A stretch of 11,135 bases of DNA from the IMG/VR virus record IMGVR_UViG_2675903606_000019, positions 1-11,135 of that record; one strand, given 5' to 3'. The translations under genes were made by a program, and so were the position numbers. This document shows, piece by piece, positions 1 through 11,135 of this stretch; the first letter of the stretch is position 1; the number at the start of each line of letters is the position of its first letter. The notes under the pieces are model-generated. The model was given only the letters and a program-made list of their open reading frames with translations, was not told the DNA's origin and ran no database searches. The DNA is from a virus (lineage: Duplodnaviria > Heunggongvirae > Uroviricota > Caudoviricetes).

Positions 1-1218
1 ATGAACAAACTGAGCGATACCTTGCTAAGGAAACTTCATGGTAAGCCAGCGGAGAAAAACACGTTTTATAGTGATGGCGGAAACCTGAGCGTGAAATATT
101 TAACATCAGGGAAATTGACCTGGTATTTCACATACAGGGCCGGAACGGGAAGGGAGACACGACCCGAACGCATTAAGCTGGGAAGTTATCCTGATCTGAG
201 CCTGAAAGCAGCCAGGGAAAAAGCCGCACAGTGTCGCACATGGCTGGCTGAGGGGAAAAATCCACGTCATGAGATGAATTACACCGTACAGGAAGCGTTA
301 AAGCCCGTAACGGTTGGCGATGCGCTCACCTACTGGCTTGAGTATTACGTAAAGGAAAACCGCGTGGATTATATCGCCCTGAAAAGGCGACTTAATAATC
401 ACGTAATACAGCAGATTGGTGCTATGCCGCTGGATAAATGCGAGCTACGGCACTGGCTGGCCTGTTTTGACCAGGTGGCAAAGCGAACGCCTGTTACTGC
501 CGGATTCGTGCTACAGGCGTGCAAACAGGCGCTTAAGTTCTGCCGTAGGCGGCGCTATGCAATCAGCAACGTTCTGGACGATCTGAACGTGGCGGACGTT
601 GGGAAAAAACCGGATATAAGCGAACGTGTCTTAAGTAACAAAGAACTTGGCGAATTATTGCAGGCACTGGACAAAAAAATATTTTCCCCTTACTACGTCG
701 CGTTAATCCGCCTCCTGATTGTCTTCGGAGCCAGGACGGTAGAACTGAGGCTATCGGAGATCGGGGAGTGGGATTTTACGGAAATGCTATGGACCGTTCC
801 GAAGGAGCACAGCAAAACGAAGGTCGCAATATTCCGGCCCATACCGGAAGCGATCCTGCCGTTCGTCACGCAGCTGGTGGAGCAGAACAGGCACACGGGC
901 TTATTGCTGGGGGAAGCGAAACAGGAGGCCAGCGTATCGCAGTATGGAAGATTAGCGCACAGGAGGCTTAATCATCCTCACTGGTCACTGCATGACATCC
1001 GGCGCACCTTTACAACCATGCTGAACGATTTAGGCGTTGATCCGCATGTCGTGGAGCAGCTTACAGGTCATCAGATGCCAGGAATGCAGCGAGTTTATAA
1101 TCATTCCCGTTATCTGGATGCTAAACGCAATGCGCTGGATATGTGGACGGAGCGGTTAGGGATACTGGCGGGAACACATGAAAACGTAACCACGCTACCA
1201 GTAGCCAGAAGAAAATAA
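1..1218 (+). CDS. int: P4-family tyrosine integrase (site-specific recombinase)
   Basis: 405-aa ORF from the track. N-terminal arm-binding-type segment (GKLTWYFTYR, GSYPDLSLKAAREKA) and C-terminal tyrosine-recombinase signature (HDIRRT ... GHQMPGMQRVYNHSRY). Overall pattern matches P4/CP4-57 IntA-type integrases from memory. Confidence 0.9.
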   Translation: MNKLSDTLLRKLHGKPAEKNTFYSDGGNLSVKYLTSGKLTWYFTYRAGTGRETRPERIKLGSYPDLSLKAAREKAAQCRTWLAEGKNPRHEMNYTVQEALKPVTVGDALTYWLEYYVKENRVDYIALKRRLNNHVIQQIGAMPLDKCELRHWLACFDQVAKRTPVTAGFVLQACKQALKFCRRRRYAISNVLDDLNVADVGKKPDISERVLSNKELGELLQALDKKIFSPYYVALIRLLIVFGARTVELRLSEIGEWDFTEMLWTVPKEHSKTKVAIFRPIPEAILPFVTQLVEQNRHTGLLLGEAKQEASVSQYGRLAHRRLNHPHWSLHDIRRTFTTMLNDLGVDPHVVEQLTGHQMPGMQRVYNHSRYLDAKRNALDMWTERLGILAGTHENVTTLPVARRK

Positions 1219-1236
1219 TTTTTTTCGTGTTTTTTC

Positions 1237-1252
1237 AGTATGCGCATACTGG
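1237..1252. repeat. Perfect 16-bp palindrome CAGTATGCGCATACTG just 3' of int
   Basis: Read directly from the sequence. A T-run precedes it on the plus strand and no U-run follows, so it is more likely a protein-binding dyad than a terminator. Confidence 0.6.
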
Positions 1253-1263
1253 ATATGCGAACA

Positions 1264-1320
1264 GATACAACATGCAACAATGAGCAACAATGCGGAACAA
1301 CTACGAACAAGAGGCGAAAA
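1264..1320. repeat. Helically phased (10-bp period) AACAA/ACAA repeats, 5-6 copies
   Basis: Consecutive 10-nt blocks each end in ACAA: gatACAA / catgcAACAA / tgagcAACAA / tgcggAACAA / ctacgAACAA / gaggcgAAAA. Strict 10-bp phasing suggests same-face binding sites or a bent-DNA element in the int-alpA spacer. Confidence 0.5.
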
Positions 1321-1404
1321 AGTGTACGGATTTATAAGTGGCTGATTTTTAATGTGTTACTGGTTTTTTATACACTAGCGAATCACTCTTTAAATAGCGA
1401 GAAA

Positions 1405-1433
1405 AAAGGCATGAAACAATATTTTATGCCTTT
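1405..1433. terminator. Hairpin AAAGGCAT-N13-ATGCCTTT flanked by A-run and T-run (possible bidirectional terminator)
   Basis: 8-bp inverted repeat seen in the sequence. On the minus strand the stem is followed by UUUUUUCUC, on the plus strand by UUUGUAUU. The loop is large (13 nt), so the call is weak. Confidence 0.3.
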
Positions 1434-1592
1434 GTATTAACATGAATTTAAATGATTTTATCCTGATTATTCCTGTTTCTGTAAACCATACGACCTCAAC
1501 ATTTGCCAACTCTGAATCATCCTGACACAATCAGACACATCCCAACGCAATAGAACACGAAATAACTCTTTAAGAAACGAAAGGGGGCAATA

Positions 1593-1781
1593 GTGTTAAG
1601 CACTGATCGGTTTATACGTGAAAAAGAATGCGAAAAGCTAACAGGCCTTAGCCGCTCATGCCGCTACCGCCTGGAAAAGGCCGGACAATTCCCATCACGT
1701 CGTAAACTTGGCGGTCGTTCCGTTGGCTGGTCTTTATCCGAGGTTCTGGCCTGGAAGGATAGCTGCAAGGCAGTTCATTAA
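1593..1781 (+). CDS. alpA: AlpA-family prophage transcriptional regulator (small HTH protein)
   Basis: 62-aa ORF with GTG start at 1593 and RBS AAGGGGG about 6 nt upstream. Pattern EKLTGLSRSCRYRLEKAGQFPSRRKLGGRSVGWSLSEVLAW matches the AlpA signature (G.SR...Y.....G.FP....LG.RSVGW...E...W). Confidence 0.85.
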   Translation: MLSTDRFIREKECEKLTGLSRSCRYRLEKAGQFPSRRKLGGRSVGWSLSEVLAWKDSCKAVH

Positions 1782-1927
1782 TCACGCTGGCGGCACACAG
1801 CCGCCACACATCAATCATCTGAACACAGAGCTATAACCATGAAGATTGAATATACGCCAGAACGTGGGCGGGGATTCGTTCGCCCTGGTGAGACTGGAAA
1901 ACCACAAAATTGGGGTTTTTCAGGCAT

Positions 1928-1955
1928 AAAAAAAGCGGCCCCGAAATGGAGCCGC
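1928..1955 (-). terminator. Rho-independent terminator for the leftward small-gene operon
   Basis: GC stem GCGGC/GCCGC (1935-1939 / 1951-1955) with possible inner pairs. On the minus strand it is followed by a 7-U run (complement of A-run 1928-1934). It lies about 100 nt downstream of the minus-strand gene ending at 2051. Confidence 0.5.
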
Positions 1956-2050
1956 CTTTCTGAACAGATAACCCGCTGCGCCGTTTGTGTGTGTGATCCC
2001 AAACATAAGCACGGGGATGATAGCCGCTATCAGGCTGGTGGGCAATGCAA

Positions 2051-2239
2051 TCAGTCTGGTTCAGTTCGTTGCCATACCTGCAATGAGCGCTTTTCCCTGT
2101 ACTCTTTAAGGAATTGCTCAAGGGCAAAAGCACATGGCGCGAATCTTTCTGATTCATGTTCTATCTTTCTGCGCCGTCTTTTCCGTGCCGGTGATAATGT
2201 TTTGGTCAATTCTTTATCGGTCATTGTGTTGTCCTGCAT
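2051..2239 (-). CDS. Small basic hypothetical protein (62 aa; alternative start at 2224 gives 57 aa)
   Basis: Track ORF MQDNTMTDKELTKTLSPARKRRRRKIEHESERF... The second ATG (MTDKEL) has an AGGA RBS 7 nt upstream. Arg/Lys-rich segment suggests nucleic-acid binding. It sits second in a leftward two-gene unit ending at the terminator near 1928-1955. Confidence 0.5.
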   Translation of the reverse strand: MQDNTMTDKELTKTLSPARKRRRRKIEHESERFAPCAFALEQFLKEYREKRSLQVWQRTEPD

Positions 2240-2281
2240 AGCAATGCGCCGTAATACCTTACACCACGGCGCTGATGGTGA

Positions 2282-2461
2282 TTACTCTGGTTCTTTGGCC
2301 TTGCGCCGCTGGCGATATTCAACTTCTCGTTTTAATGCTGCAGTAACAAATTGCCCCGTACTTTCGCCAGGCATTTTTACCGCCTCAACATTGTTCATAA
2401 CTTCATGCGGAACCCTTGCCGCAACGGTTTGTGATTTTGCGTTTACTGCTTTTGTCGCCAT
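2282..2461 (-). CDS. Small hypothetical protein (59 aa, below the ORF-track cutoff), candidate switch regulator
   Basis: Hand-translated from the minus strand: MATKAVNAKSQTVAARVPHEVMNNVEAVKMPGESTGQFVTAALKREVEYRQRRKAKEPE, stop TAA. RBS GAGGGG lies 8-13 nt upstream of the ATG (complement of 2459-2461). It is the first gene transcribed leftward from the operator region. Confidence 0.5.
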   Translation of the reverse strand: MATKAVNAKSQTVAARVPHEVMNNVEAVKMPGESTGQFVTAALKREVEYRQRRKAKEPE

Positions 2462-2511
2462 GTGGTGTACCCCTCATAAAAAACAAATGCAGTATGCAGG
2501 AAAAAAAATAA

Positions 2512-2563
2512 GTGTTCAACACTTGACGTGTTTAACACCTGGGTTTAAATTGGTGTTCAACAC
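2512..2563. promoter_or_regulatory. Three near-palindromic 11-bp operator-like sites GTGTT(C/T)AACAC overlapping divergent promoter elements
   Basis: Sites at 2512-2522, 2528-2538 and 2553-2563. Rightward -35 TTGACG (2523-2528) and -10 TAAATT (2546-2551, 17-bp spacer) lie between and within the sites. On the minus strand a TTGAAC -35 lies inside site 1. The region sits between divergently oriented small genes. Confidence 0.5.
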
Positions 2564-2660
2564 CTTGTTGGCGCAAGGTGCAGAAACGACGAAACCCGGC
2601 AGTGCGCTAACACTAACCGGGCTTCTAACCACCAACGATAGCGAAAGTATCGAGGTAGCT

Positions 2661-2864
2661 ATGAGAAATAATACCACACACCCGCAAGGGCGGGATTCGC
2701 ACAACCTGAATAAATACATCTGGCGTTTTATCGCCCTGAGCACGGCACAACCGCGCGTGATTACCATTGAGGCCACCAGCGAACAGGAAGCACGCCAGCA
2801 ATCTCCGGCTGGCTGCGTGATGGTATTCGCCGCCCGTATTCGTCAAGGGGTGTGCCATGACTGA
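2661..2864 (+). CDS. Small hypothetical protein (67 aa), first gene of the rightward early operon
   Basis: ATG at 2661 preceded by GAGGT RBS. In frame with the long track ORF 1839..2864 but only this 3' part is plausible. Its stop TGA (2862-2864) overlaps the next start ATG (2857-2859), consistent with translational coupling. Confidence 0.55.
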   Translation: MRNNTTHPQGRDSHNLNKYIWRFIALSTAQPRVITIEATSEQEARQQSPAGCVMVFAARIRQGVCHD

Positions 2865-3177
2865 TATGTCAAATTACCAGTACCTGATTAATCCGCATTT
2901 TAACTGTGAGCATGATATTGCTAAAAAGGTTTATTCCGCTGCGGATGGGGCTACTGACAATATATCAATGGCTGTTTCGTCAATTGGTAGCCTGATGTGG
3001 TATGCGTCAGAAAATAAGGAATATGACGAAAAGGCCATGCGCATTGATATGGGTAATATCGGTTTGTTACTGGCAATGCTTGGACAGTTTAATATTTCGT
3101 TACGGTGCACCATTGAAAATGCCACAGATGCATTAAATGCCATAAAGAAAGCGAATACTGATTCAAATCGGGGATAA
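2857..3177 (+). CDS. Hypothetical protein (106 aa), AT-rich cargo-like gene
   Basis: Track ORF MTDMSNYQYLINPHFNCEHDIAKK... Start overlaps the upstream stop (ATGACTGA). Visibly lower GC than neighbouring genes (estimated by eye). No recognisable family signature. Confidence 0.65.
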   Translation: MTDMSNYQYLINPHFNCEHDIAKKVYSAADGATDNISMAVSSIGSLMWYASENKEYDEKAMRIDMGNIGLLLAMLGQFNISLRCTIENATDALNAIKKANTDSNRG

Positions 3178-3183
3178 ATAATC

Positions 3184-3483
3184 ATGAGAACATATTTATC
3201 TGGCTTGACTGCCAGCGGTTATGCACACCCAAAAATTATCCCCGGCGCTATTTATCTGGATAAGAACGGTAACAGAGTAACGGTAAAAGAACTGATGTTT
3301 GACCGTGTTTATTTTATCCGTGATGGATATTCATTTCTTAGTTCGCTGAACGTGGAGATCTTTATTTGCAGATTCCGGCGGGAAATCCCGACTTCCAGAA
3401 ATAACCATGTGTCACGTGTGGATGTGGATAAAAAACTACAGGAACTGAAAAACATGATTGCCGCGTGGAGAGAGCAGAAATGA
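3184..3483 (+). CDS. Hypothetical protein (99 aa), AT-rich cargo-like gene
   Basis: Track ORF MRTYLSGLTASGYAHPKIIPGAIYLDKNGNRVTVKELMFDRVYFIRDGYSF... RBS GGGGA upstream. Its stop TGA (3481-3483) overlaps the ATG (3480-3482) of the primase gene (ATGA coupling). Confidence 0.65.
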   Translation: MRTYLSGLTASGYAHPKIIPGAIYLDKNGNRVTVKELMFDRVYFIRDGYSFLSSLNVEIFICRFRREIPTSRNNHVSRVDVDKKLQELKNMIAAWREQK

Positions 3484-5603
3484 AAAAAGCGCCAAATTTA
3501 AAACACCAGCCGCGTGACAAAATGACGGAAGTCATCATTTTTGCGGGTAGTGATGCGTGGGCACATGCGAAGCAGTGGCAGGAACAGGACGGGCGACTGG
3601 CTGGCGACAGCGTGCCTCCTGTCTGGCTTGGAGAGCAACAACTTGCCGAACTGGATAAGCTGCAAATTGTGCCGGAAGGCCGAAAATCAGTACGCATATT
3701 CAGGGCCGGACATCTTGAGCCAGTAATGATCAAGGCGATTGGTCAGAAGCTGGCGGCGGCAGGCGTACAGGATGCAAATTTTTACCCTGATGGAATGCAC
3801 GGTCAGGAGGTGGAGAACTGGCGCGAATATCTAGCCCGTGAGCGGCAGAATCTTTCTGATGGTCTGGTTATTGAGTTTCCGGTAAAGAAAAAAGATACCG
3901 GAAGCCATAGCGATGACGAATTAAAGCCACGCGTTGAAAGTCGCGCCGATGGTGTTTTCTGGGTAACGCCCAAAGTGGATAAGCAGTCAGGCGAAATTAT
4001 CCGGCCTGAGACGTGGTTATGTTCTCCGCTTGAACTACTGGGAACGGGGACGATCGGTAAAGAGCATTACCGCGTGATGCGCTGGAAAAAAACCGCAAAC
4101 CATGAAGTCATCACAATGGCGATCCCGTGTGGTGGTATCGGCGACCGTGACGGCTGGCGGTTACTTAAAGATCACGGGCTGAACGTGACAACCAACGGCA
4201 AATACAGGGCAATCCTGGCGGACTGGATGCAGTTAAGCGGAAGCCATGAGGAATGGCAGTTAAGCACAACAACGGGCTGGCATTTTGGCGCGTACATCAT
4301 GCCGGACGGTTCGATCATTGGTGAATCTGAAAAACCGATCCTGTTTACCGGAAAAAGCGCCGCGATTAACGGTTATTCCGTGGCGGGCACGGCGGATGGC
4401 TGGCGCGACAGCGTGGCGCGGCTGGCTGGCGGTAATGCCTCAATGATGCTGGGTGTGGCAACGTCACTGGCAGCGCCTTTAATTGGCCTTGTGGGTGCTG
4501 ACGGCTTCGGGGTGCATCTTTTCGAACAGTCATCGGCAGGTAAGACCACCACGCAGAACATCGCATCAAGTTTATGGGGAGAGCCGGACGCGCAGCGGCT
4601 GACCTGGTACGGCACGGCGTTAGGTATTGCCAATGAGGCCGAGGCCCATAATGACGGGCTTTTACCACTGGATGAGATAGGCCAGGCCGGAAATGCGCGG
4701 GAAGTGTCAACGTCTGCTTATACGCTGTTTAACGGTTCAGGGAAATTGCAGGGGGCGAAGGATGGCGGCAACAGGGAGATCAAACACTGGCGAACGGTGG
4801 CAATCAGCACCGGAGAAATGGACGTTGAGACATTCCTCAAAAGTGAGGGGATAAAAGTTAAGGCGGGGCAGCTTGTCCGACTGCTTAACGTTCCGATGGA
4901 AAAAGCCACGAAATTTCACGAATACAGCAACGGTAAGGAACATGCTGACGCGTTAAAGGATGCCTGGACAGCAAATCACGGGGCGGCGGGTCGTGAGTGG
5001 GTTAAATGGCTGGCAGGCCACCAGCAGGAGGCAAAGGATACGGTAAGGGAATGCCGCGAACGGTGGCGCAACCTGATACCGGAGAGCTACGGCGAGCAGG
5101 TCCACCGCGTGGGTGAACGTTTCGCCATACTGGAGGCCGCGCTTGTGCTTTCCGGTCATGTAACTGGCTGGGTCGTGCAGGAATGCCGCGACGCGATACA
5201 GCATAACTTTAATGCCTGGGTGAAGGAGTTCGGCACGGGTAACAGGGAATTTAAACAGATGGTTGAACAGGCTGAGGCGTTTTTGTCGTCGTTTGGGTTT
5301 AGCCGCTACCTTCCGTACCCCAATACAGATGAGCGTGATTTACCGATTAAAGAGCTTGCCGGATACAGAAAAGGGAGCATTCGCAACGAAGATGACGAGA
5401 TGCGCTATTACACGTTCCCGCACGTGTTTGAGAGTGAGATAGCGAAGGGATTTAATCCGGCGCATTTTGCGCGTGCCCTGGATGCTGCCGGAATGCTGGA
5501 GAAGGGAAGCGATCGCCGATACAAAAAAAAGGCGCTGGGCAAGATTGGGGGTAAGCAGCATGTTTTTTACGTGCTGATGTTCCAGCCTGATGATGAAGAT
5601 TAA
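3480..5603 (+). CDS. Replication primase/helicase-type protein (P4 alpha / PICI Pri-Rep-like; NTPase with Walker A motif)
   Basis: About 707 aa (track ORF 3465..5603; the ATG at 3480 with ATGA overlap is preferred, ATG at 3465 or 3522 possible). Contains Walker A-like SSAGKTTT and is followed directly by an iteron array. Size and position match the satellite/prophage primase-helicase class. The exact domain family needs a profile search. Confidence 0.8.
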   Translation: MKKAPNLKHQPRDKMTEVIIFAGSDAWAHAKQWQEQDGRLAGDSVPPVWLGEQQLAELDKLQIVPEGRKSVRIFRAGHLEPVMIKAIGQKLAAAGVQDANFYPDGMHGQEVENWREYLARERQNLSDGLVIEFPVKKKDTGSHSDDELKPRVESRADGVFWVTPKVDKQSGEIIRPETWLCSPLELLGTGTIGKEHYRVMRWKKTANHEVITMAIPCGGIGDRDGWRLLKDHGLNVTTNGKYRAILADWMQLSGSHEEWQLSTTTGWHFGAYIMPDGSIIGESEKPILFTGKSAAINGYSVAGTADGWRDSVARLAGGNASMMLGVATSLAAPLIGLVGADGFGVHLFEQSSAGKTTTQNIASSLWGEPDAQRLTWYGTALGIANEAEAHNDGLLPLDEIGQAGNAREVSTSAYTLFNGSGKLQGAKDGGNREIKHWRTVAISTGEMDVETFLKSEGIKVKAGQLVRLLNVPMEKATKFHEYSNGKEHADALKDAWTANHGAAGREWVKWLAGHQQEAKDTVRECRERWRNLIPESYGEQVHRVGERFAILEAALVLSGHVTGWVVQECRDAIQHNFNAWVKEFGTGNREFKQMVEQAEAFLSSFGFSRYLPYPNTDERDLPIKELAGYRKGSIRNEDDEMRYYTFPHVFESEIAKGFNPAHFARALDAAGMLEKGSDRRYKKKALGKIGGKQHVFYVLMFQPDDED

Positions 5604-5625
5604 TCCCCTGTGTGAGGAAAAAAAT

Positions 5626-5941
5626 TGCGGGTTATGCGGGTTATCCTGTGTATAAGTGTATTAAGTGCATGAATATAAAGGAAACCAATAACCCGCACGT
5701 AACCCGCAAAAGGGCATTTATAACCCGCAAAAGCACGATTATAACCCGCAGGCGAATAACTGAAGTAACACCGGACAGTCATGCGTAACCCGCAGAAAAA
5801 ACCCAGTTTGCGGGTTATTTTGAGCGTTTTGCGGGTTACGTGGTGAGCAAATAATAAACAGGGTGTTTTGCAAAATACTGATATAAAAGGATAAAAAATG
5901 GTTAGCACGCTAAGATAACCCAATAACCCGCATAACCCGCA
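5626..5941. repeat. Iteron array: about 11-12 copies of TAACCCGCA in both orientations (probable replication origin)
   Basis: Reverse copies (TGCGGGTTA) at 5626-5634, 5635-5643, 5809-5817, 5830-5838. Forward copies at 5689-5697, 5700-5708, 5721-5729, 5742-5750, 5786-5794, 5924-5932, 5933-5941, plus a degenerate copy near 5914-5922. AT-rich stretches at 5855-5960. Lies immediately downstream of the primase/helicase gene. Confidence 0.75.
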
Positions 5942-5973
5942 CATGTTTCTATATATATAAATTGAGGTGGCAA

Positions 5974-6225
5974 ATGACCAGAACACGCAGAGACAGAACA
6001 GAGCCAAAATATAAAGCGTTAGACATGACTGAGCACACCTTAAAGGTGGCAATCAGAACGATAGACCGCCACACGCGGGAAGGATACGCGAAGGAACATC
6101 CCGACCTGATAAGCGCATTCATGACCACGGCGGCGGCAAACTTTGCCACGCTGACAGAACGGGAGATTGCCGAAGCGGAACAGGTAACAACCATCAACGT
6201 TAAAACCGGAGAGGTGGAATCATGA
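5974..6225 (+). CDS. Hypothetical protein (83 aa from ATG 5974; the track starts at TTG 5962)
   Basis: RBS GAGG at 5964-5967 precedes ATG 5974. Its stop overlaps the ssb start (ATGA at 6222-6225). No family recognised. Confidence 0.6.
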   Translation: MTRTRRDRTEPKYKALDMTEHTLKVAIRTIDRHTREGYAKEHPDLISAFMTTAAANFATLTEREIAEAEQVTTINVKTGEVES

Positions 6226-6632
6226 CAGCACAGATAGCGGCTTACGGTCGGCTGGTGGACGACCCGCAGGTAAAACAGACCAGCAAGGGCACACCGATGA
6301 CGCTGGCGCGTATGGCGGTATCACTGCCATGCAGTCAGGCACAGGACGGACAGGCGACGTTATGGCTATCGGTCATCGCATTTGGTAAGCAGGCCGACTT
6401 CCTGGCTAAACATCAAAAAGGCGACGTTGCCAGCGTATCCGGCACGATGCAGGTAAGCCAGTGGACCGGACAGAACGGGGAGACGCGTCAGGGTTATCAG
6501 GTTATTGCAGACAGCGTAATCAGTGCCCGTGCGGCACGTCCTGGCGGGAACAGACGCAAAACCACAGGCGCACAGGGTAATCAGCCACCAGCGGGAGGCG
6601 ATGACCCTTACGGTGATGATATTCCGTTCTGA
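6222..6632 (+). CDS. ssb: Single-stranded DNA-binding protein (SSB), short form with canonical acidic C-terminal tip
   Basis: 136 aa. OB-fold-like core (GRLVDDPQV..., W...FGKQADFL..KG..V...G......W....G..R) and C-terminus ending DDPYGDDIPF, matching the conserved SSB DDDIPF tail that recruits partner proteins. Confidence 0.85.
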   Translation: MTAQIAAYGRLVDDPQVKQTSKGTPMTLARMAVSLPCSQAQDGQATLWLSVIAFGKQADFLAKHQKGDVASVSGTMQVSQWTGQNGETRQGYQVIADSVISARAARPGGNRRKTTGAQGNQPPAGGDDPYGDDIPF

Positions 6633-6642
6633 GGGGGTGACG

Positions 6643-6915
6643 ATGGTACATGACCGCATAGCGGAAGAACTCGAAGCGAAAGGATTTTACCGGAGGGCGG
6701 CGGCGCGATGGGGTGAAGTCATGATGCTGGTGGAGACAGACAAGGAACGGCATCACATCACGATGCGACGGCTGGAATGTTCCAGGAAGGCACAGAGGCC
6801 ACCGGAGCCGCCGGATAACTTCGGAGACCTGAGAAAGGCAGTCGATCGCACTTATGCTGAAATGGGTATAGATGGTGTAAGCGATGAAATATGGCGTAAT
6901 TACCCAGGCAGCTAA
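6643..6915 (+). CDS. PerC-like small transcriptional regulator (90 aa)
   Basis: ATG at 6643 with RBS GAGGGGG 5 nt upstream (the track ORF 6523..6915 is in frame but its 5' part overlaps ssb). Motif EELEAKGFYRRAAARWGEVMM resembles the PerC-family signature (G-[FW]-[WY]-RRAA-x-RW) as I recall it. Confidence 0.55.
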   Translation: MVHDRIAEELEAKGFYRRAAARWGEVMMLVETDKERHHITMRRLECSRKAQRPPEPPDNFGDLRKAVDRTYAEMGIDGVSDEIWRNYPGS

Positions 6916-6921
6916 TCAACA

Positions 6922-6943
6922 GCCGGAGTAATCCGGCTTTTTT
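6922..6943 (+). terminator. Rho-independent terminator after the replication module
   Basis: Stem GCCGGA/TCCGGC with GTAA loop followed by TTTTTT (6938-6943). Confidence 0.7.
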
Positions 6944-6956
6944 GTACCCAAAAAAA

Positions 6957-6992
6957 GCCCGATAAGTACAGGAGGCATCTTATCGGGCTTTT
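6957..6992. terminator. Second hairpin terminator, potentially bidirectional
   Basis: 10-bp stem GCCCGATAAG/CTTATCGGGC with 12-nt loop. A-run upstream (6950-6956), TTTT downstream, and a further T8 run at 7003-7010. Confidence 0.5.
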
Positions 6993-7071
6993 GCATATGA
7001 GGTTTTTTTTGGTGCACTGACACACATGATCGGGATCATCATTTCATAATTTGCAACACAACTCAACATCA

Positions 7072-7099
7072 TTGCATAAAATGCAATCATGATTATAAT
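7072..7099 (+). promoter_or_regulatory. Strong sigma70-like promoter for the capsid operon (-35 TTGCAT, 16-bp spacer, -10 TATAAT)
   Basis: TTGCAT at 7072-7077 and a perfect TATAAT at 7094-7099. Located about 55 nt upstream of the first late-operon start codon. Confidence 0.5.
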
Positions 7100-7103
7100 C
7101 AGA

Positions 7104-7119
7104 TCTGGATGAACATCCA
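7104..7119. promoter_or_regulatory. Perfect inverted repeat CTGGATG-AA-CATCCAG at the predicted transcription start
   Basis: Seen in the sequence. Followed within 6 nt by a T6 run (GATTTTTTAAG). Could be an operator or a 5' RNA hairpin/attenuator. A second dyad, ATGATC-GG-GATCAT, lies upstream at about 7026-7039. Confidence 0.45.
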
Positions 7120-7155
7120 GTTATGATTTTTTAAGTCAAAGAGGAATTTCTTACT

Positions 7156-7362
7156 ATGGCTGAAGAGAAAAAAGGCGGTGTTTCGGTGTACATAAGCCCC
7201 GACATCGTGAAGGCGCTCAAGGAACGCCACCAGCAGAACGTAAAAGCAGGCATTGCGGCAGGACTTGATCCGCTGGCGATGGTTGAGCCGTCAACAGGCT
7301 GGCAGGTACGCGCCTATTTACGCGCGGCGCTGGGTATGAATCAGGTTCACGGGGGTGAATAA
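7156..7362 (+). CDS. Hypothetical protein (68 aa), first gene of the capsid operon
   Basis: RBS GAGGA 10 nt upstream. Its stop TAA overlaps the major capsid gene start (TAATG at 7360-7364). No family recognised. Confidence 0.6.
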   Translation: MAEEKKGGVSVYISPDIVKALKERHQQNVKAGIAAGLDPLAMVEPSTGWQVRAYLRAALGMNQVHGGE

Positions 7363-8417
7363 TGACAGTAAAAGCAATAGCACTTAACACTAACCAGCTT
7401 TTTGTGTACCTGAATCGCGAGGATATTGCGGAATTTAAATTCAGTCCGCTGTTTACCGCGCTGTTTTTCCCGAACGTGGCGACATTCAACACACAGGACA
7501 TCATGTTAGATAACCTGGATATTGAAGAAGTCACTATGTCGGCGTTTTGTTCGCCTATGGTGGGTAGCCAGGTTCAGCGCGATAAAGGGTACGAAACAAG
7601 CATTATTCGCCCTGGCTACATGAAGCCAAAACACGAAATCGATCCATTAAAAACAATAATGCGCATGGCTGGAGAAGATCCAGCACAGCTTAACGACCCT
7701 ACCTACCGCCGTATGCGCCTGATTACTGGCAACATGCGCCGCCAGATAAACGCCATTAAAGCGCGCGTGGAATGGCTGGCGGTAAATGCGGTAACGACCG
7801 GAAAAAACATCATTGAGGGCGAAGGCATAGAGCGCTATGAAATCGACTGGAAGATACCGGAAAAAAACATCATAGAGCAGGCCGACGGTAAAAAATGGTC
7901 AGAGCAGGACAAAGACATACACGACCCAATCTATGACATTGAGCTATACGCAGATCAGGCAGGTTGCCCCGCCAACGTCATGATTATGGGCGTTGATGTA
8001 TGGCGCATGTTACGCAGCTTTAAAAAATTCCGTGAACTGTACGATCTCTCCCGTGGTTCAGAATCCGCCGCAGAGCTGGCATGTAAAAACCTGGGCGAAG
8101 TGGTGAGCTTTAAAGGCTATCTTGGTGATCTGGCCCTTATCGTCTATTCCGGCAAATACACTGACAGCGACGGCACAGAAAAATATTTCCTTGAGCCTGA
8201 TTTGCTGGTCCTGGGCAACACCAACAATAAAGGGCTGGTGGCCTATGGTGCGATTATGGAACAGGAAGCGGTAAGAACGGGCGCAACGCAAAACATGTTT
8301 TACCCGAAAAACTGGATTGAAGACGGCGATCCGGCGATTGAGTACGTGCAGACACACAGCGCACCGCAGCCTGTTCCGGCAGATATTCGCAAATTTGTTA
8401 CCGTCAAAATTGGTTAA
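7362..8417 (+). CDS. Major capsid protein, lambda gpE family
   Basis: 351 aa. Multiple blocks match phage lambda gpE as recalled: FKFSPLFTALFF (lambda FKFDPLFLRLFF), PGYMKPKHEIDP (PGYVKPKHEVNP), EDPAQLNDPTYRRMRLITGNMRRQ (EDPQNLADPAYRRRRIIMQNMRDE), YPKNWIEDGDPAIEYVQTHSAP (YPKNWVTTGDPAREFTMIQSAP). Confidence 0.9.
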   Translation: MTVKAIALNTNQLFVYLNREDIAEFKFSPLFTALFFPNVATFNTQDIMLDNLDIEEVTMSAFCSPMVGSQVQRDKGYETSIIRPGYMKPKHEIDPLKTIMRMAGEDPAQLNDPTYRRMRLITGNMRRQINAIKARVEWLAVNAVTTGKNIIEGEGIERYEIDWKIPEKNIIEQADGKKWSEQDKDIHDPIYDIELYADQAGCPANVMIMGVDVWRMLRSFKKFRELYDLSRGSESAAELACKNLGEVVSFKGYLGDLALIVYSGKYTDSDGTEKYFLEPDLLVLGNTNNKGLVAYGAIMEQEAVRTGATQNMFYPKNWIEDGDPAIEYVQTHSAPQPVPADIRKFVTVKIG

Positions 8418-8428
8418 CGGTGGATTCT

Positions 8429-8764
8429 ATGAACACTCCATACATTGAGTTATTTGCAGGCAGTCAGCAGGTATCAACGACGCTGGTACATTTTGCCGCT
8501 GATGCTGGCGTTATTCAGGAATTTACCCCGCTGATGCTGGCGGACAATGGCGAGTTTAAGCCGTGGGATGGTCAGGAATCTGGCAAGGCTGTTTATCTGA
8601 CCTCGTACCCCGTTGACACGTCGACGCAGAAATCAGCACAGTGCTATAAGACGGGGATATTCAATATCGCCGCCGTTAACTGGCCTGAGAGCGTCGACAC
8701 CGATGCGAAAAAATGCGCCGCCTTTGCGGGTTCTGGCGTATCCGTTCAGCCGCTGGCCCGATAA
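8429..8764 (+). CDS. Head decoration protein, lambda gpD family
   Basis: 111 aa from ATG 8429 (the track starts at GTG 8420); RBS GGTGGA 5 nt upstream. Matches lambda gpD blocks: TPLMLADNGEFKPWDG (lambda TPLMLDTSSRKLVAWDG), YKTGIFNIAAVNWPESVDTDAKKCAAFAGSGVSV ([35 protein letters not shown]). Confidence 0.85.
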   Translation: MNTPYIELFAGSQQVSTTLVHFAADAGVIQEFTPLMLADNGEFKPWDGQESGKAVYLTSYPVDTSTQKSAQCYKTGIFNIAAVNWPESVDTDAKKCAAFAGSGVSVQPLAR

Positions 8765-8776
8765 GCAGGGGGAACG

Positions 8777-9190
8777 ATGGCAACGAATGAAAGCATCATG
8801 GCGCTACCGCTGGCGAGTAAATTTAAAGCCGAAGCGCGGGCAATGGCTGACAGAGGGTTATCAACCTACGAGGCCGTATATCAACTCAACAAACTGGAAG
8901 AACAGGACAAGCCGCGCGCTGATGCGATTATGGCGCTTCATGAACATAACGACTATCAGCCGCTGTTACGTGCAATGGCAAACGTGCCATGTATTAGCGT
9001 CGATAATGCTCGTGAAATCCTGAACATGACCATAGAGCAGGAGCGCCCAAAGGTTGCACCAGAGCTTACCGCAGCCTTTGAAAACTTTATGGACATGCAC
9101 AGCCCGCAAGCCGTATCAGCTGGCATGGCATACGATGGCAGAAACCAGGGCGATGACGGCGACATCGATCACATACTGAAAACCATCTGA
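8777..9190 (+). CDS. Hypothetical protein (137 aa), last gene of the capsid operon
   Basis: RBS AGGGGGA 4 nt upstream of the ATG. Acidic C-terminus. No resemblance noted to lambda FI/FII/W as I recall them. Followed by a strong terminator. Confidence 0.65.
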   Translation: MATNESIMALPLASKFKAEARAMADRGLSTYEAVYQLNKLEEQDKPRADAIMALHEHNDYQPLLRAMANVPCISVDNAREILNMTIEQERPKVAPELTAAFENFMDMHSPQAVSAGMAYDGRNQGDDGDIDHILKTI

Positions 9191-9196
9191 GACAAG

Positions 9197-9220
9197 GCCG
9201 GAGAAATCCGGCTTTTTTTT
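9197..9220 (+). terminator. Strong rho-independent terminator (GNRA tetraloop hairpin plus T8)
   Basis: Stem GCCGGA/TCCGGC with GAAA loop and 8 T (9213-9220). The stem is identical to that of the terminator at 6922-6943. Confidence 0.8.
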
Positions 9221-9298
9221 ACGGGTCCTTTCCGGCATATGGACCCGTTACGGGGCGGCGACCTCGCGGTTTTTCGCTATTTATGAGCCTTTTCAGGG
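9221..9298. other. Lambda-type cos site (cosQ-like, cosN 12-nt cohesive end GGGCGGCGACCT at 9253-9264, start of cosB)
   Basis: ACGGGTCCTTTCCGG...GTTACG-GGGCGGCGACCT-CGCGGTTTTTCGCTATTTATGA closely matches the right and left termini of phage lambda as I recall them (right end ...ACGGGTCCTTTCCGGTGATCCGACAGGTTACG, left end GGGCGGCGACCTCGCGGGTTTTCGCTATTTATGA...). Sequence diverges from lambda after about 9298. Confidence 0.8.
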
Positions 9299-9358
9299 GG
9301 GTGGTGGTGGTTTTGTTGTTTGCTCTATCTTTATGAATGAAAAGGGAAAGATGCAAAC

Positions 9359-9396
9359 AATACACCAACCTGAAGCAGTAATTAAGTTGGTGTATT
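9359..9396. repeat. Perfect 11-bp inverted repeat AATACACCAAC-N16-GTTGGTGTATT abutting the terS start codon
   Basis: Read directly from the sequence. The right arm ends 2 nt before ATG 9398. Candidate cosB-type binding site or a translational-control hairpin. Confidence 0.5.
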
Positions 9397-9397
9397 A

Positions 9398-9940
9398 ATG
9401 AAATCGCACCTGATGAACAAAAAAAACATGGCGAAAAGCTGCCGTGTAAGTGCGACAGCGTTCGACAAGTGGGGAGTGACTCCCGTTGAACGTAAAGGCC
9501 GTGAGGCGTTTTACGATGTTGCCAGCGTGATAGACAATAGGGTTAACAATGCAATTAGCCAGCTTACAAACGACAAAGGCGATATTGATGATGATGAACT
9601 CTTACGAGTCAGGATCAGATTACTGACAGCACAGGCGGAGGCGCAGGAACTTAAAAACGAGCGCGATCGCGGTGACGTGATCGATACTGAGTTTTGCCTG
9701 TACGCGCTTTCAAAGCTGGCGAGTCAGATTTCATCAATCATGGACAGCCTCCCGCTTACTATGCAAAGGAGCTTCCCACAGATTACCCCCGCCATGCTGG
9801 ATAGGCTTAAAAGGGAAGTGGTTAAAGCCTGTAATGCCAGTGCCAGAGTTGCCGACAACCTCCCACAGATACTGGCTGATTACTTGAAAGAAACAACCGG
9901 AAACGTACCGGAAAAGTTGCAGCCGAATAAAGATAAGTAA
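9398..9940 (+). CDS. Terminase small subunit, lambda Nu1 family
   Basis: 180 aa. C-terminal two thirds align with lambda Nu1 as recalled: RLLTAQAEAQELKNERDRGDVIDTEFCLYALSKLASQISSIMDSLPLTMQRSFPQ (lambda RLTRAQADAQELKNARDSAEVVETAFCTFVLSRIAGEIASILDGLPLSVQRRFPE). N-terminal region is more divergent but still shows NKK...W...G.PV.R.G....YD.A.VI. Confidence 0.85.
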   Translation: MKSHLMNKKNMAKSCRVSATAFDKWGVTPVERKGREAFYDVASVIDNRVNNAISQLTNDKGDIDDDELLRVRIRLLTAQAEAQELKNERDRGDVIDTEFCLYALSKLASQISSIMDSLPLTMQRSFPQITPAMLDRLKREVVKACNASARVADNLPQILADYLKETTGNVPEKLQPNKDK

Positions 9941-9951
9941 CGTAGTACGCT

Positions 9952-10233
9952 ATGACTGAATCCGAAATACTGCGATTAATCCGCCGCGTCTCTGGAATCA
10001 GCCAGCAGGCTGACGAACAGACCACGCAGCCGGACAGCGTGACAGCCGAAAACTATGCGCGTGTTGTTGCTGAGGTGATGCGCCGTGATGGTATAGAACT
10101 TAATGGCGTGGATATGCGCAACATACGAACCAGAGTTCTTGAGTTGCTGGCCTACCGTCGCCGCGTGGAGATGTATCGGGAGAAGGAGAAAATAACGTAC
10201 CACTGGAAGAAGCCGGAGCGGTTGCGGCGGTAA
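9952..10233 (+). CDS. Hypothetical protein (93 aa) downstream of terS
   Basis: Track ORF MTESEILRLIRRVSGISQQADEQ... It occupies the position where lambda has the large terminase gene A, but is far too small to be a terminase. No family recognised. Confidence 0.55.
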   Translation: MTESEILRLIRRVSGISQQADEQTTQPDSVTAENYARVVAEVMRRDGIELNGVDMRNIRTRVLELLAYRRRVEMYREKEKITYHWKKPERLRR

Positions 10234-10526
10234 CTGGTTGATATTCCCGACGGACCAAAAATGGGTGGCTACATCCCTCGCTTCTGAGGACTGTTAACAA
10301 GCTGCCTGAAAGACAGTCACAAACTACGAAATTTTCGCAGTTTAATTAATGATCAGCTTAATCGCTAACCCGCTGATATTTTCGGAAACCTCAATTTGAG
10401 GAAGTCGGCGCGGTAACTCGCTGAACTTTAAGCAAAGCGCAAAATTGCGCTTGCTGAATAATCATTATGATTACGCAGATGATTAAGGAATGACCGAAGG
10501 CGGAAATTCGCCTGTGGTTAATGGGG

Positions 10527-10546
10527 GAGTTGCAGATCTGCAACTC
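10527..10546. repeat. Perfect 20-bp palindrome GAGTTGCAGATCTGCAACTC
   Basis: Read directly from the sequence. A perfect 20-bp palindrome is very unlikely by chance in 11 kb. Confidence 0.7.
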
Positions 10547-10552
10547 GACCAT

Positions 10553-10639
10553 GAAACTACGGAAACTACCCGTAGTTTGGGTAGTAAGAGTAACACCCAG
10601 ATTTTGGGTCTTACTCGTGATACCCAAATTTGGGGTATC
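10553..10639. repeat. Half-site array (AAACTAC x2, then GTAGTTT and a partial GGGTAGT) followed by two adjacent stable hairpins / palindromic sites
   Basis: AAACTAC at 10554-10560 and 10563-10569, GTAGTTT at 10572-10578, partial copy at 10579-10585. Hairpin GAGTAA-c-ACCCA-gattt-TGGGT-c-TTACTC (10588-10616). Hairpin GATACCC-aaatttg-GGGTATC (10619-10639). The two ACCCA...GGGT units are direct repeats of a palindromic site about 27 bp apart. Confidence 0.55.
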
Positions 10640-10902
10640 AGTGGCAACCATAACGACTTTCGTTACGGTTGATGCTTTTACCCCATTGGGGGAAAGGTAT
10701 TACGATAATCATAACACCTACCGAACAGGTAAAGCCCACCAGCCTGATTAACGTTTAACCGGAAAAAAATTCCGGTAGGTGGGGATCCCCATATCGACAT
10801 TAACGCCCCTCATGAATTGGTGCGCTTCCCCCTGGAAAGATGATCCGCCTGTATATTTCTTGTGTCTATTTGTTCCACGTTGTTTCATACAGTGCACCGA
10901 AC

Positions 10903-10924
10903 GGTGTAGTCACTGGTGTAGTCA
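10903..10924. repeat. Tandem direct repeat GGTGTAGTCA x2 (12-bp period) near the right junction; candidate integrase arm-type sites
   Basis: GGTGTAGTCA at 10903-10912 and 10915-10924, followed by TTTTGCG repeats at about 10924-10950. About 75 bp inside the proposed junction. Confidence 0.4.
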
Positions 10925-10976
10925 TTTTGCGATTTTTGGCACTTTTTGCGGTGAAAATTATTTAATTAAATCAACG

Positions 10977-11135
10977 TGTTATGTGAAATAAGTTATATAT
11001 AACAGCAATAAATAATGCGAGAATAAACGGCACGATGATCTCGGTGGCAAAACGGATACCGCAGAGAATAATGACCAGCATTCCCAACATAATGACGATT
11101 TTTAGGCCATTGAGCGTGATGATCGGCTTTGCCAT
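10977..11135 (-). pseudogene. tqsA: Truncated 5' fragment of a tqsA-like (AI-2 exporter family) membrane protein gene; likely chromosomal flank interrupted by the element
   Basis: Minus-strand ORF of 52 codons, [52 protein letters not shown], then TAA. The first 46 or so residues match the N-terminus of E. coli TqsA/YdgG as I recall it; the reading frame then diverges and stops, where the native protein continues for about 300 more residues. Confidence 0.55.

Follow-up and report, generated by a model that had tools for sequence, protein, structure and literature searches.

A probable classical Gram-negative phage-inducible chromosomal island in Escherichia coli tqsA, with its own small terminase, a lambda-type cos site and a conserved capsid unit

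We analysed a stretch of 11,135 nucleotides listed as viral in IMG/VR (record IMGVR_UViG_2675903606_000019, positions 1 to 11,135; the whole stretch is called the window below). Taken as a whole, it very probably represents a classical Gram-negative phage-inducible chromosomal island (PICI) from the EcCICFT073 family, nearly complete and about 11.2 kb long, which is integrated in the tqsA gene of Escherichia coli and would use its own small terminase (TerS) and cos site for packaging as multimers. From position 1 to 11135 its order is int, alpA, small open reading frames (ORFs), a DUF4222 gene, primase, an iteron origin, an 87-aa ORF, SSB, PerC, orf68, E, D, orf137, cos, terS, orf93 and a fragment of tqsA. 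According to the six-frame ORF listing and the profile searches, in which 20 ORFs were scanned for families (Pfam, PHROG and further profile libraries), the main gene set forms a single co-oriented series, and two short ORFs point leftward. Satellites of this type have been described before, and so have their capsid and decoration genes, their cos site and how often they occur in E. coli; with the family published and very common in E. coli, the window matters little as a discovery. What is added here is a true TerS in the slot held by Rpp in the model island EcCICFT073, together with a matching cosB, a scaffold-like protein (orf137) and the deletion of a second cos site (cos2).

The window was compared with the account of Gram-negative PICIs in Fillol-Salom 2018 and with the PICI model of SatelliteFinder, whose five core components include a capsid component and a small terminase (PMC10085698). 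A capsid gene is present in 21 of 29 reference Gram-negative PICIs (PMC10111431), and further literature supports the family placement (PMC6739421). The features that place the window among the PICIs on its left side and at its chromosomal junction are as follows.

1..1218, plus strand: tyrosine integrase (Pfam Arm-DNA-bind_3 1.3e-18, Phage_integrase 1.4e-16; phrog_1 1.5e-70)
1593..1781, plus strand: AlpA regulator or excisionase-type helix-turn-helix protein (Pfam Phage_AlpA 5e-18)
3465..5603, plus strand: primase/replicase of DUF927 type, 712 aa (Pfam DUF927 1.6e-48; phrog_1139 DNA primase 1.6e-190)
5626..5941, no strand: predicted replication origin, an AT-rich core surrounded by 11 exact TAACCCGCA iterons of either orientation
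10902..10924, plus strand: tandem GGTGTAGTCACT repeats, proposed as arm-type sites for the integrase and also found upstream of int in strain RM10466
10999..11007, no strand: attR core ATAACAGCA, the same as at the attL junction of RM10466
11008..11135, minus strand: 5' fragment of tqsA (ydgG), the integration target (ORF translation; RM10466 annotation at the same junction)

The tyrosine integrase gene lies at the left end with a co-oriented alpA downstream, and the primase is followed by an iteron origin, in which TAACCCGCA occurs 11 times against 0.14 copies expected; the functional PICI origin is likewise located 3' of pri (PMC6092414). The int-AlpA-primase-origin backbone proposed in the first-pass annotation of the window was thus recovered by Pfam, PHROG and the iteron count, each part where it had been placed. 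To this are added a capsid homologue and a packaging determinant (lambda-type cos plus terS). Portal, large terminase (TerL), tail and lysis families found no match among the 20 window ORFs in the Pfam and PHROG profile scans, and the only match to protease families in these ORFs was that of orf137, to the scaffold section at the C-terminal end of the phrog_53 protease profile. NCBIfam gave no match for any capsid-unit or packaging protein. The length of about 11.19 kb, counted from the att core, falls within the range of about 10-15 kb of Gram-negative PICIs, which also carry a chromosomal att with a direct repeat; here the attR core equals attL of RM10466.

The chromosomal context was taken from RM10466, the best full-length relative among complete E. 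coli genomes (85% coverage, 93.6% identity). Its island is also in tqsA and is flanked by core genes, with pntAB and the rest of tqsA on one side and mdtJI on the other. The 9-mer ATAACAGCA is present at both tqsA junctions, from which the att core was inferred, and the tandem GGTGTAGTCACT repeat is found near either island end. Between orf93 and tqsA lie about 750 bp of non-coding DNA, and the tqsA part of the window consists of the first 128 bases of the gene. There is no tRNA gene in the window, so integration has not taken place at one. The gene that is split, tqsA, encodes an AI-2 transporter, and both halves are annotated as pseudogene fragments in RM10466; tqsA is therefore probably inactivated in strains that carry the island.

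The packaging region occupies the right part of the window.

9221..9286, plus strand: lambda-type cosQ, cosN (9253-9264) and I2-like segment, 57/66 positions as in lambda
9287..9397, plus strand: island-specific cosB; GGTGGTGGTGG lies at bp 48-58 counted from the cohesive end, and an inverted repeat of 10 bp precedes terS
9398..9940, plus strand: full-length Nu1-family small terminase (TerS), 180 aa (Pfam Phage_Nu1 2.3e-23; phrog_57 2.9e-53)
9952..10233, plus strand: 93-aa ORF (orf93), which follows TerS or Rpp in sister islands (phrog_1561 4.7e-56)

The lambda cohesive-end 12-mer GGGCGGCGACCT occurs in a single exact copy at 9253-9264, where about 0.001 would be expected in 22 kb, so that the claim of a lambda cosN proved right. 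The 66 bases identical to lambda at 57 positions, an agreement well beyond what chance would give, run from cosQ (ACGGGTCCTTTCCGG) through cosN to ...CTATTTATGA (...CGCTATTTATGA); rightward, beyond ...CGCTATTTATGA, there is no relation to lambda cosB. In an alignment of five islands and the helper prophage of strain CFT073, the cosQ-cosN-I2 segment was common to TerS-type islands, Rpp-type islands and the prophage, and TerS-type and Rpp-type islands diverged completely straight after ...TATTTATGA. From this position of the break it follows that cosB travels with its specificity protein, and the link between terminase cassette and cosB is directly observed. At the position of R3 in lambda and N15 (window 9300-9310), TerS-type islands have GGTGGTGGTGG (bp 48-58) and Rpp-type islands ACACCACCACCAC (bp 53-65), which are one triplet motif in opposite orientations.

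The gene next to this cosB encodes a Nu1 homologue, as the first-pass annotation had it, with 83 bits against a cut-off of 30 for Phage_Nu1 (PF07471). The protein is collinear from end to end, winged-helix N-terminus included, with N15 gp1 (45%) and lambda Nu1 (38%), and its C-terminal LPQILADYL aligns with lambda IPGLLSEYI. In TerS proteins the last 40 residues are the TerL-binding domain, which Rpp proteins do not have (Murialdo and Feiss, PMC9026076). Rpp is about 144-153 aa long, with a winged helix-turn-helix and a C-terminal dimerisation helix, and the Rpp of EcCICFT073 must borrow the TerS of its helper (Fillol-Salom 2019). No similarity of the window TerS to RppA was found by BLASTP (E = 1.4), and a sequence search of the PDB with TerS returned nothing, RppC crystal structures included (E <= 0.01); a PDB search with orf93 was likewise empty. 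An Rpp-type cos PICI was rejected on account of this lack of similarity to RppA and RppC and of the unrelated cosB.

A second, inverted cosN lies between the specificity gene and orf93 in the islands of CFT073, RM10466 and O157. In the window (9941-9951) a segment of about 245 bp with this cos2 is deleted (compare L001:22699-22953 in RM10466 and L003:26095-26373 in CFT073). Among 29 TerS-type IMG/VR loci, both cos sites were found in 18, only the first in eight and a short gap as in the window in five. Deletion of cos2 in EcCICFT073 raised lambda-mediated transfer (PMC6092414).

By homology with EcCICFT073, a lambdoid helper phage would turn on alpA, upon which the island would be excised by Int and replicated from its own primase and iteron origin. 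The concatemeric island DNA would then be cut at the lambda-type cosN by the helper TerL and packaged. Because TerS is collinear with Nu1 including the C-terminal end, and because cosB is paired with TerS, we infer that island TerS binds island cosB through its N-terminal winged helix and recruits the helper TerL (gpA type) through its conserved C-terminal end. This would favour island DNA in competition with the helper TerS. Such a route would be the cos counterpart of the TerS strategy of Staphylococcus pathogenicity islands (SaPIs) and, unlike Rpp, would need no bridging through the helper TerS. Given a unit of 11.2 kb, roughly four copies (44.8 kb, 92% of lambda) would fill a helper-size head. 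How TerS-type cos PICIs redirect a lambda-type TerL is a question raised by this island, the only route worked out being that of Rpp. As one shared backbone carries either TerS or Rpp, each cleanly exchanged together with its cosB, the islands offer a ready-made natural experiment on terminase redirection.

Upstream of cos, a second conserved unit encodes capsid proteins.

7156..7362, plus strand: 68-aa ORF (orf68; phrog_3255 8.4e-37)
7362..8417, plus strand: major capsid protein E of the lambda gpE family (Pfam Phage_cap_E 5.5e-49, profile positions 15-328 of 329)
8429..8764, plus strand: head decoration protein D of the lambda gpD family (Pfam HDPD 3.7e-18; alternative GTG start at 8420)
8777..9190, plus strand: probable Nu3-type scaffolding protein, 137 aa (orf137; C-terminal part of phrog_53, 7.2e-10)
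9194..9215, plus strand: intrinsic-terminator-like hairpin and T-run that close the capsid unit

The profile search confirmed the gpE-like and gpD-like genes. By BLASTP, E is 43% identical to lambda gpE over 328 aa (6e-92) and D is 37% identical to lambda gpD over 76 aa (6e-14). E is far closer to c1499 of EcCICFT073 (95% identity) than to E of the CFT073 helper prophage (45%). E lies upstream of D, the reverse of the lambda order, as had been pointed out before, and when orf137 is counted in, the island series E, D, scaffold runs exactly opposite to C/Nu3, D, E in lambda. The small orf68 precedes E in all 80 related loci described below, and its stop codon overlaps the E start codon. The unit has a 5' region of its own (7000-7155), which lies between terminator-like hairpins and holds the palindrome ATTGCATAAAATGCAAT at about 7071-7087; these features suggest that the capsid genes are separately regulated.

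The protein of orf137 is probably a scaffold, with resemblance to the Nu3-type portion nested in a gpC of phage-21 type. Residues 416-493 of gpC (501 aa) from the icd prophage of CFT073 share 37% identity with it (E = 2e-10), and we take this prophage, from its integration in icd, to be the published EcCICFT073 helper, phage 4. The orf137 protein is also 32% identical over 112 aa, including the FExFMxxHSPxxVxxG tail, to the 195-aa protein P0043, which corresponds to the nested C-terminal 200 residues of this gpC from an internal Met, a Nu3 arrangement. Exhaustive homology searches with HMMER and a word index returned only a very narrow E. coli family and the scaffold-like P0043. The AlphaFold2 model of orf137 is all-helical and of low confidence (pLDDT 63.5), and a PDB sequence search found nothing. 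The name given to the family by NCBI, 'phage head-tail connector protein', was set aside, as nothing computed supports it. With this resemblance, the first-pass annotation was right that portal, TerL and tail genes are missing and was probably wrong that the window has no scaffold gene.

Pairwise dN/dS values among five islands (Nei-Gojobori) were 0.07-0.17 for E, 0.04-0.15 for D, 0.08-0.24 for int, 0.04-0.26 for SSB, about 0.2 for TerS and 0.1-0.6 for orf137. E, D and TerS are thus under purifying selection. Among INPHARED phages, no E was more than 48% and no TerS more than 46% identical to the island proteins, which indicates old satellite lineages and not recent captures or decaying remnants. 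The sole established role of lambda gpD is to stabilise expanded, DNA-filled heads, and the conservation of D therefore suggests that shells containing island E become filled with DNA. Our best guess for the role of the unit is that the island E, D and scaffold-like proteins would join DNA-filled heads of helper size, redundantly with helper E and D and without formation of small capsids; the retained D gene would make sense if so.

Published work on EcCICFT073 bears directly on this role. Its capsid gene c1499 and head decoration gene c1500 were reported by Fillol-Salom 2018 (PMC6092414), so that the surmise that such genes might be undescribed in this class of satellites no longer holds. Deletion of c1499 or c1500 changed neither lambda interference nor transfer by resident prophages, lambda and phage 80 could still transfer an island with c1499::cat, and the packaged DNA was all phage-sized and not satellite-sized, from which the authors ruled out redirection of capsid size (PMC6092414). 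The capsid unit is a separate, terminator-bounded unit, conserved and under purifying selection, and was dispensable with the helpers used in the published work. What purpose conserved capsid, decoration and scaffold-like genes serve in classical Gram-negative PICIs, being dispensable and still selected, is the other question that the window raises.

The first-pass annotation had considered a distinct piracy strategy in which island E and D build a small shell; in its fuller form, E, D and the scaffold-like protein would build it around helper portal and protease, with one 11-kb genome per head. In its favour, a coherent shell kit of capsid, decoration and scaffold-like proteins is conserved under purifying selection; the island proteins are only 37-47% identical to their helper counterparts, which makes co-assembly less obvious than self-assembly, and small capsids in SaPIbov5 and PmCI172 are caused, or suspected to be caused, by homologues of capsid proteins (Ccm in SaPIbov5; PMC6092414). 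However, the knock-outs and the phage-sized DNA of EcCICFT073, an island whose capsid protein is 95% identical, contradict it, and four island copies fit a lambda-size head, so we consider small shells quite unlikely. Of the two ways in which an 11-kb genome had been supposed to be packaged, multimers are upheld by the same phage-sized DNA and by the fit of four copies, and smaller capsids are not. The unit might instead be non-structural and directed against phages: it could poison the assembly of capsids in lambdoid phages that are not helpers, for instance, or act as a defence decoy or trigger. Genes that are dispensable for transfer yet conserved would suit such a function, and PICIs are known to carry interference and defence functions. 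However, deletion of c1499 or c1500 left lambda interference unrelieved (PMC6092414), a cognate decoration protein would have no known role unless shells were expanded and filled, and no signal of defence families was seen in the window, in which no search was aimed at such families; we regard an anti-phage role as unlikely. It is also conceivable, if fairly unlikely, that the island is an intermediate between classical and capsid-forming PICIs (cf-PICIs), which with some natural helpers, or when helper capsid supply fails, would place its own shell on a helper portal. Its TerS would be free of helper TerS, the helper would give only portal, protease, TerL, connectors and tails, and the null results of the published deletions would reflect redundancy with laboratory helpers.

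Two further possibilities concern the identity of the whole window. The lambda families of E, D, Nu1 and cos could be what is left of a decayed lambdoid prophage after the loss of most late genes. We find this hardly credible, as the window has its own int-alpA-primase-origin backbone in an architecture that is identical in hundreds of genomes, with core-gene flanks, purifying selection, an E-D-scaffold order that is the reverse of lambda and E and TerS proteins at most 48% and 46% identical to those of INPHARED phages, hence not recent; this reading has in fact already been contradicted. The earlier view of a satellite island and not a piece of prophage is borne out by the core-gene flanks in RM10466 and by the absence of portal, large terminase, protease and tail genes nearby in 77 of 80 related loci. 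The chance that the window is a P4-like satellite is practically negligible. An integrase, an AlpA-type regulator, an Icd-like gene and a primase are present, but no Sid, Psu, Delta or Epsilon homologue was found among the scanned ORFs, the cos site is of lambda and not of P2/P4 type, and the architecture fits the PICI model; of the 'P4/PICI backbone' first described, only the PICI part remains.

Several points weigh against our own explanation of the window as a TerS-type PICI with a redundant capsid unit. The attL site is outside the window, and the length of 11.2 kb uses 196 bp borrowed from a relative. We found no experiment in the literature on this island or on any TerS-type cos PICI and no paper that tests the TerS mechanism in one, cos-dependent, helper-induced packaging, transfer and interference having been shown for the sister island EcCICFT073 only (PMC6092414); recruitment of TerL by TerS is thus argued by homology only. 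Nothing speaks directly for the part ascribed here to the capsid unit, and the only published knock-outs gave no phenotype. Finally, orf137 had no BLASTP match to lambda Nu3 or N15 gp6, so that its reading as a scaffold depends on the phage-21-type gpC.

The family is widespread in E. coli. Among 5426 complete genomes, the E-D pair was present in 598 (about one in nine), the TerS gene in 768 and the whole 3.2-kb module from E to orf93, at a coverage of at least 80%, in 496 (~9%). A scan of one genome per species gave no relatives of the capsid protein E. In IMG/VR, 80 related loci were retrieved with the capsid protein, and the order orf68-E-D-orf137-(TerS or Rpp)-orf93 was invariant in all of them. 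Thirty-one of these loci were of TerS type and 17 of Rpp type, none had a large terminase, and in 77 there were no portal, large terminase, protease or tail genes nearby. TerS-type cos PICIs were commoner than Rpp-type ones in both surveys. The other three loci (L049:1-19053, L050 and L011) have lambdoid late genes just past the island; in L049, which shows both flanks, a portal fragment lies on one side and the protease gene on the other. This matches the published configuration of helper-embedded PICIs (PMC10111431).

Among known systems, the window is most usefully set beside EcCICFT073, the model Gram-negative cos PICI at roxA-phoQ. Both have the same gene order from int to orf93, E proteins that are 95% identical and a cosQ-cosN-I2 segment that is identical up to ...TATTTATGA. 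They differ in integration site (roxA-phoQ against tqsA), in replication gene (CFT073-type primase against DUF927), in specificity protein (144-aa RppA against 180-aa Nu1-family TerS, with unrelated cosB) and in the number of cos sites (two against one). The 11.2-kb PICI of O157:H7 EC4115/TW14359 (2018 supplement) has the same size and shares E-D-orf137-cos-TerS-orf93 at 92-93% nucleotide identity; the module match in TW14359 lies within the coordinates of the PICI in that supplement, and O157:H7 F7386 holds the same module. Unlike the window, this PICI is located at roxA-phoQ, has a RepA-type replication gene and has kept cos2.

In SaPIs with pac sites, too, a satellite small terminase redirects the helper TerL, but by headful packaging, whereas the window island has a cos site with lambda-type cosN. 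SaPIbov5 Ccm is likewise a satellite-borne homologue of a capsid protein; it causes small capsids, an effect that the EcCICFT073 homologue did not show. The cf-PICIs, for example EcCIEDL933, resemble the window in the int-alpA-rep left half and in the presence of a major capsid protein and TerS, but add portal, protease, head-tail connectors, TerL, HNH and small capsids of their own. A capsid-forming PICI was ruled out for the window, as no portal, maturation protease, adaptor/connector, TerL or HNH was found in the ORF scans. Among phages, the closest TerS is N15 gp1 (45-46% identity), and in N15, too, the cosB region is short and lacks the R3-I1-R2-R1 array of lambda. Its cosN is a different variant, that of the island being the lambda sequence, and the candidate at the R3 position is GGTGGTGGTGG in the island and GAGGTTGTTGTTT in N15.

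The remaining features of the left half and of the right arm are listed here.

2051..2461, minus strand: two small leftward ORFs, 62 and 59 aa (phrog_21027, phrog_949)
2640..2864, plus strand: Icd-like small protein (phrog_6196 5.9e-50)
2857..3483, plus strand: two small ORFs upstream of the primase, a 106-aa protein (phrog_15327) and a DUF4222 protein (Pfam DUF4222 5.9e-17)
5962..6632, plus strand: 87-aa ORF (phrog_1231), then SSB (6222-6632; Pfam SSB 4.2e-17)
6640..6915, plus strand: PerC-family transcriptional activator, an accessory gene (Pfam PerC 1.4e-44)
6921..6996, plus strand: two terminator-like hairpins that divide the replication/PerC unit from the capsid unit
10490..10670, no strand: cluster of inverted repeats and hairpins in the right arm, which is non-coding (z = -8.8 and -9.6, one value per strand)

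The window begins about 12 nt inside the integrase gene as annotated in relatives, int of RM10466 starting 12 nt upstream. The second leftward ORF corresponds to a YlcI/YnfO-family gene annotated in the RM10466 and CFT073 islands. The Icd-like gene, annotated in relatives as 'host cell division inhibitor Icd-like protein', probably has its true start near 2661. Antisense to its 5' end (2588-2660, minus strand) there is a sub-threshold Rfam match resembling the SymR antitoxin, with 33 bits against a gathering score of 61, which is probably due to chance; nothing in the window scored above an Rfam gathering score. PerC is carried as cargo and was found in 49 of the 80 related IMG/VR loci. The replication gene is a swappable cassette, as three unrelated types occupy one slot of otherwise homologous islands: DUF927 in the window, the CFT073-type primase (L003:20242-21996) and a RepA helicase (L005:5907-7307, O157:H7 F7386). 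At the other end, between orf93 and the arm-type repeats, the hairpin cluster at 10490-10670 folds far better than shuffled sequences on both strands. It is covered by no ORF family match and no Rfam match, and could belong to the architecture of the att arm or represent an undescribed RNA.

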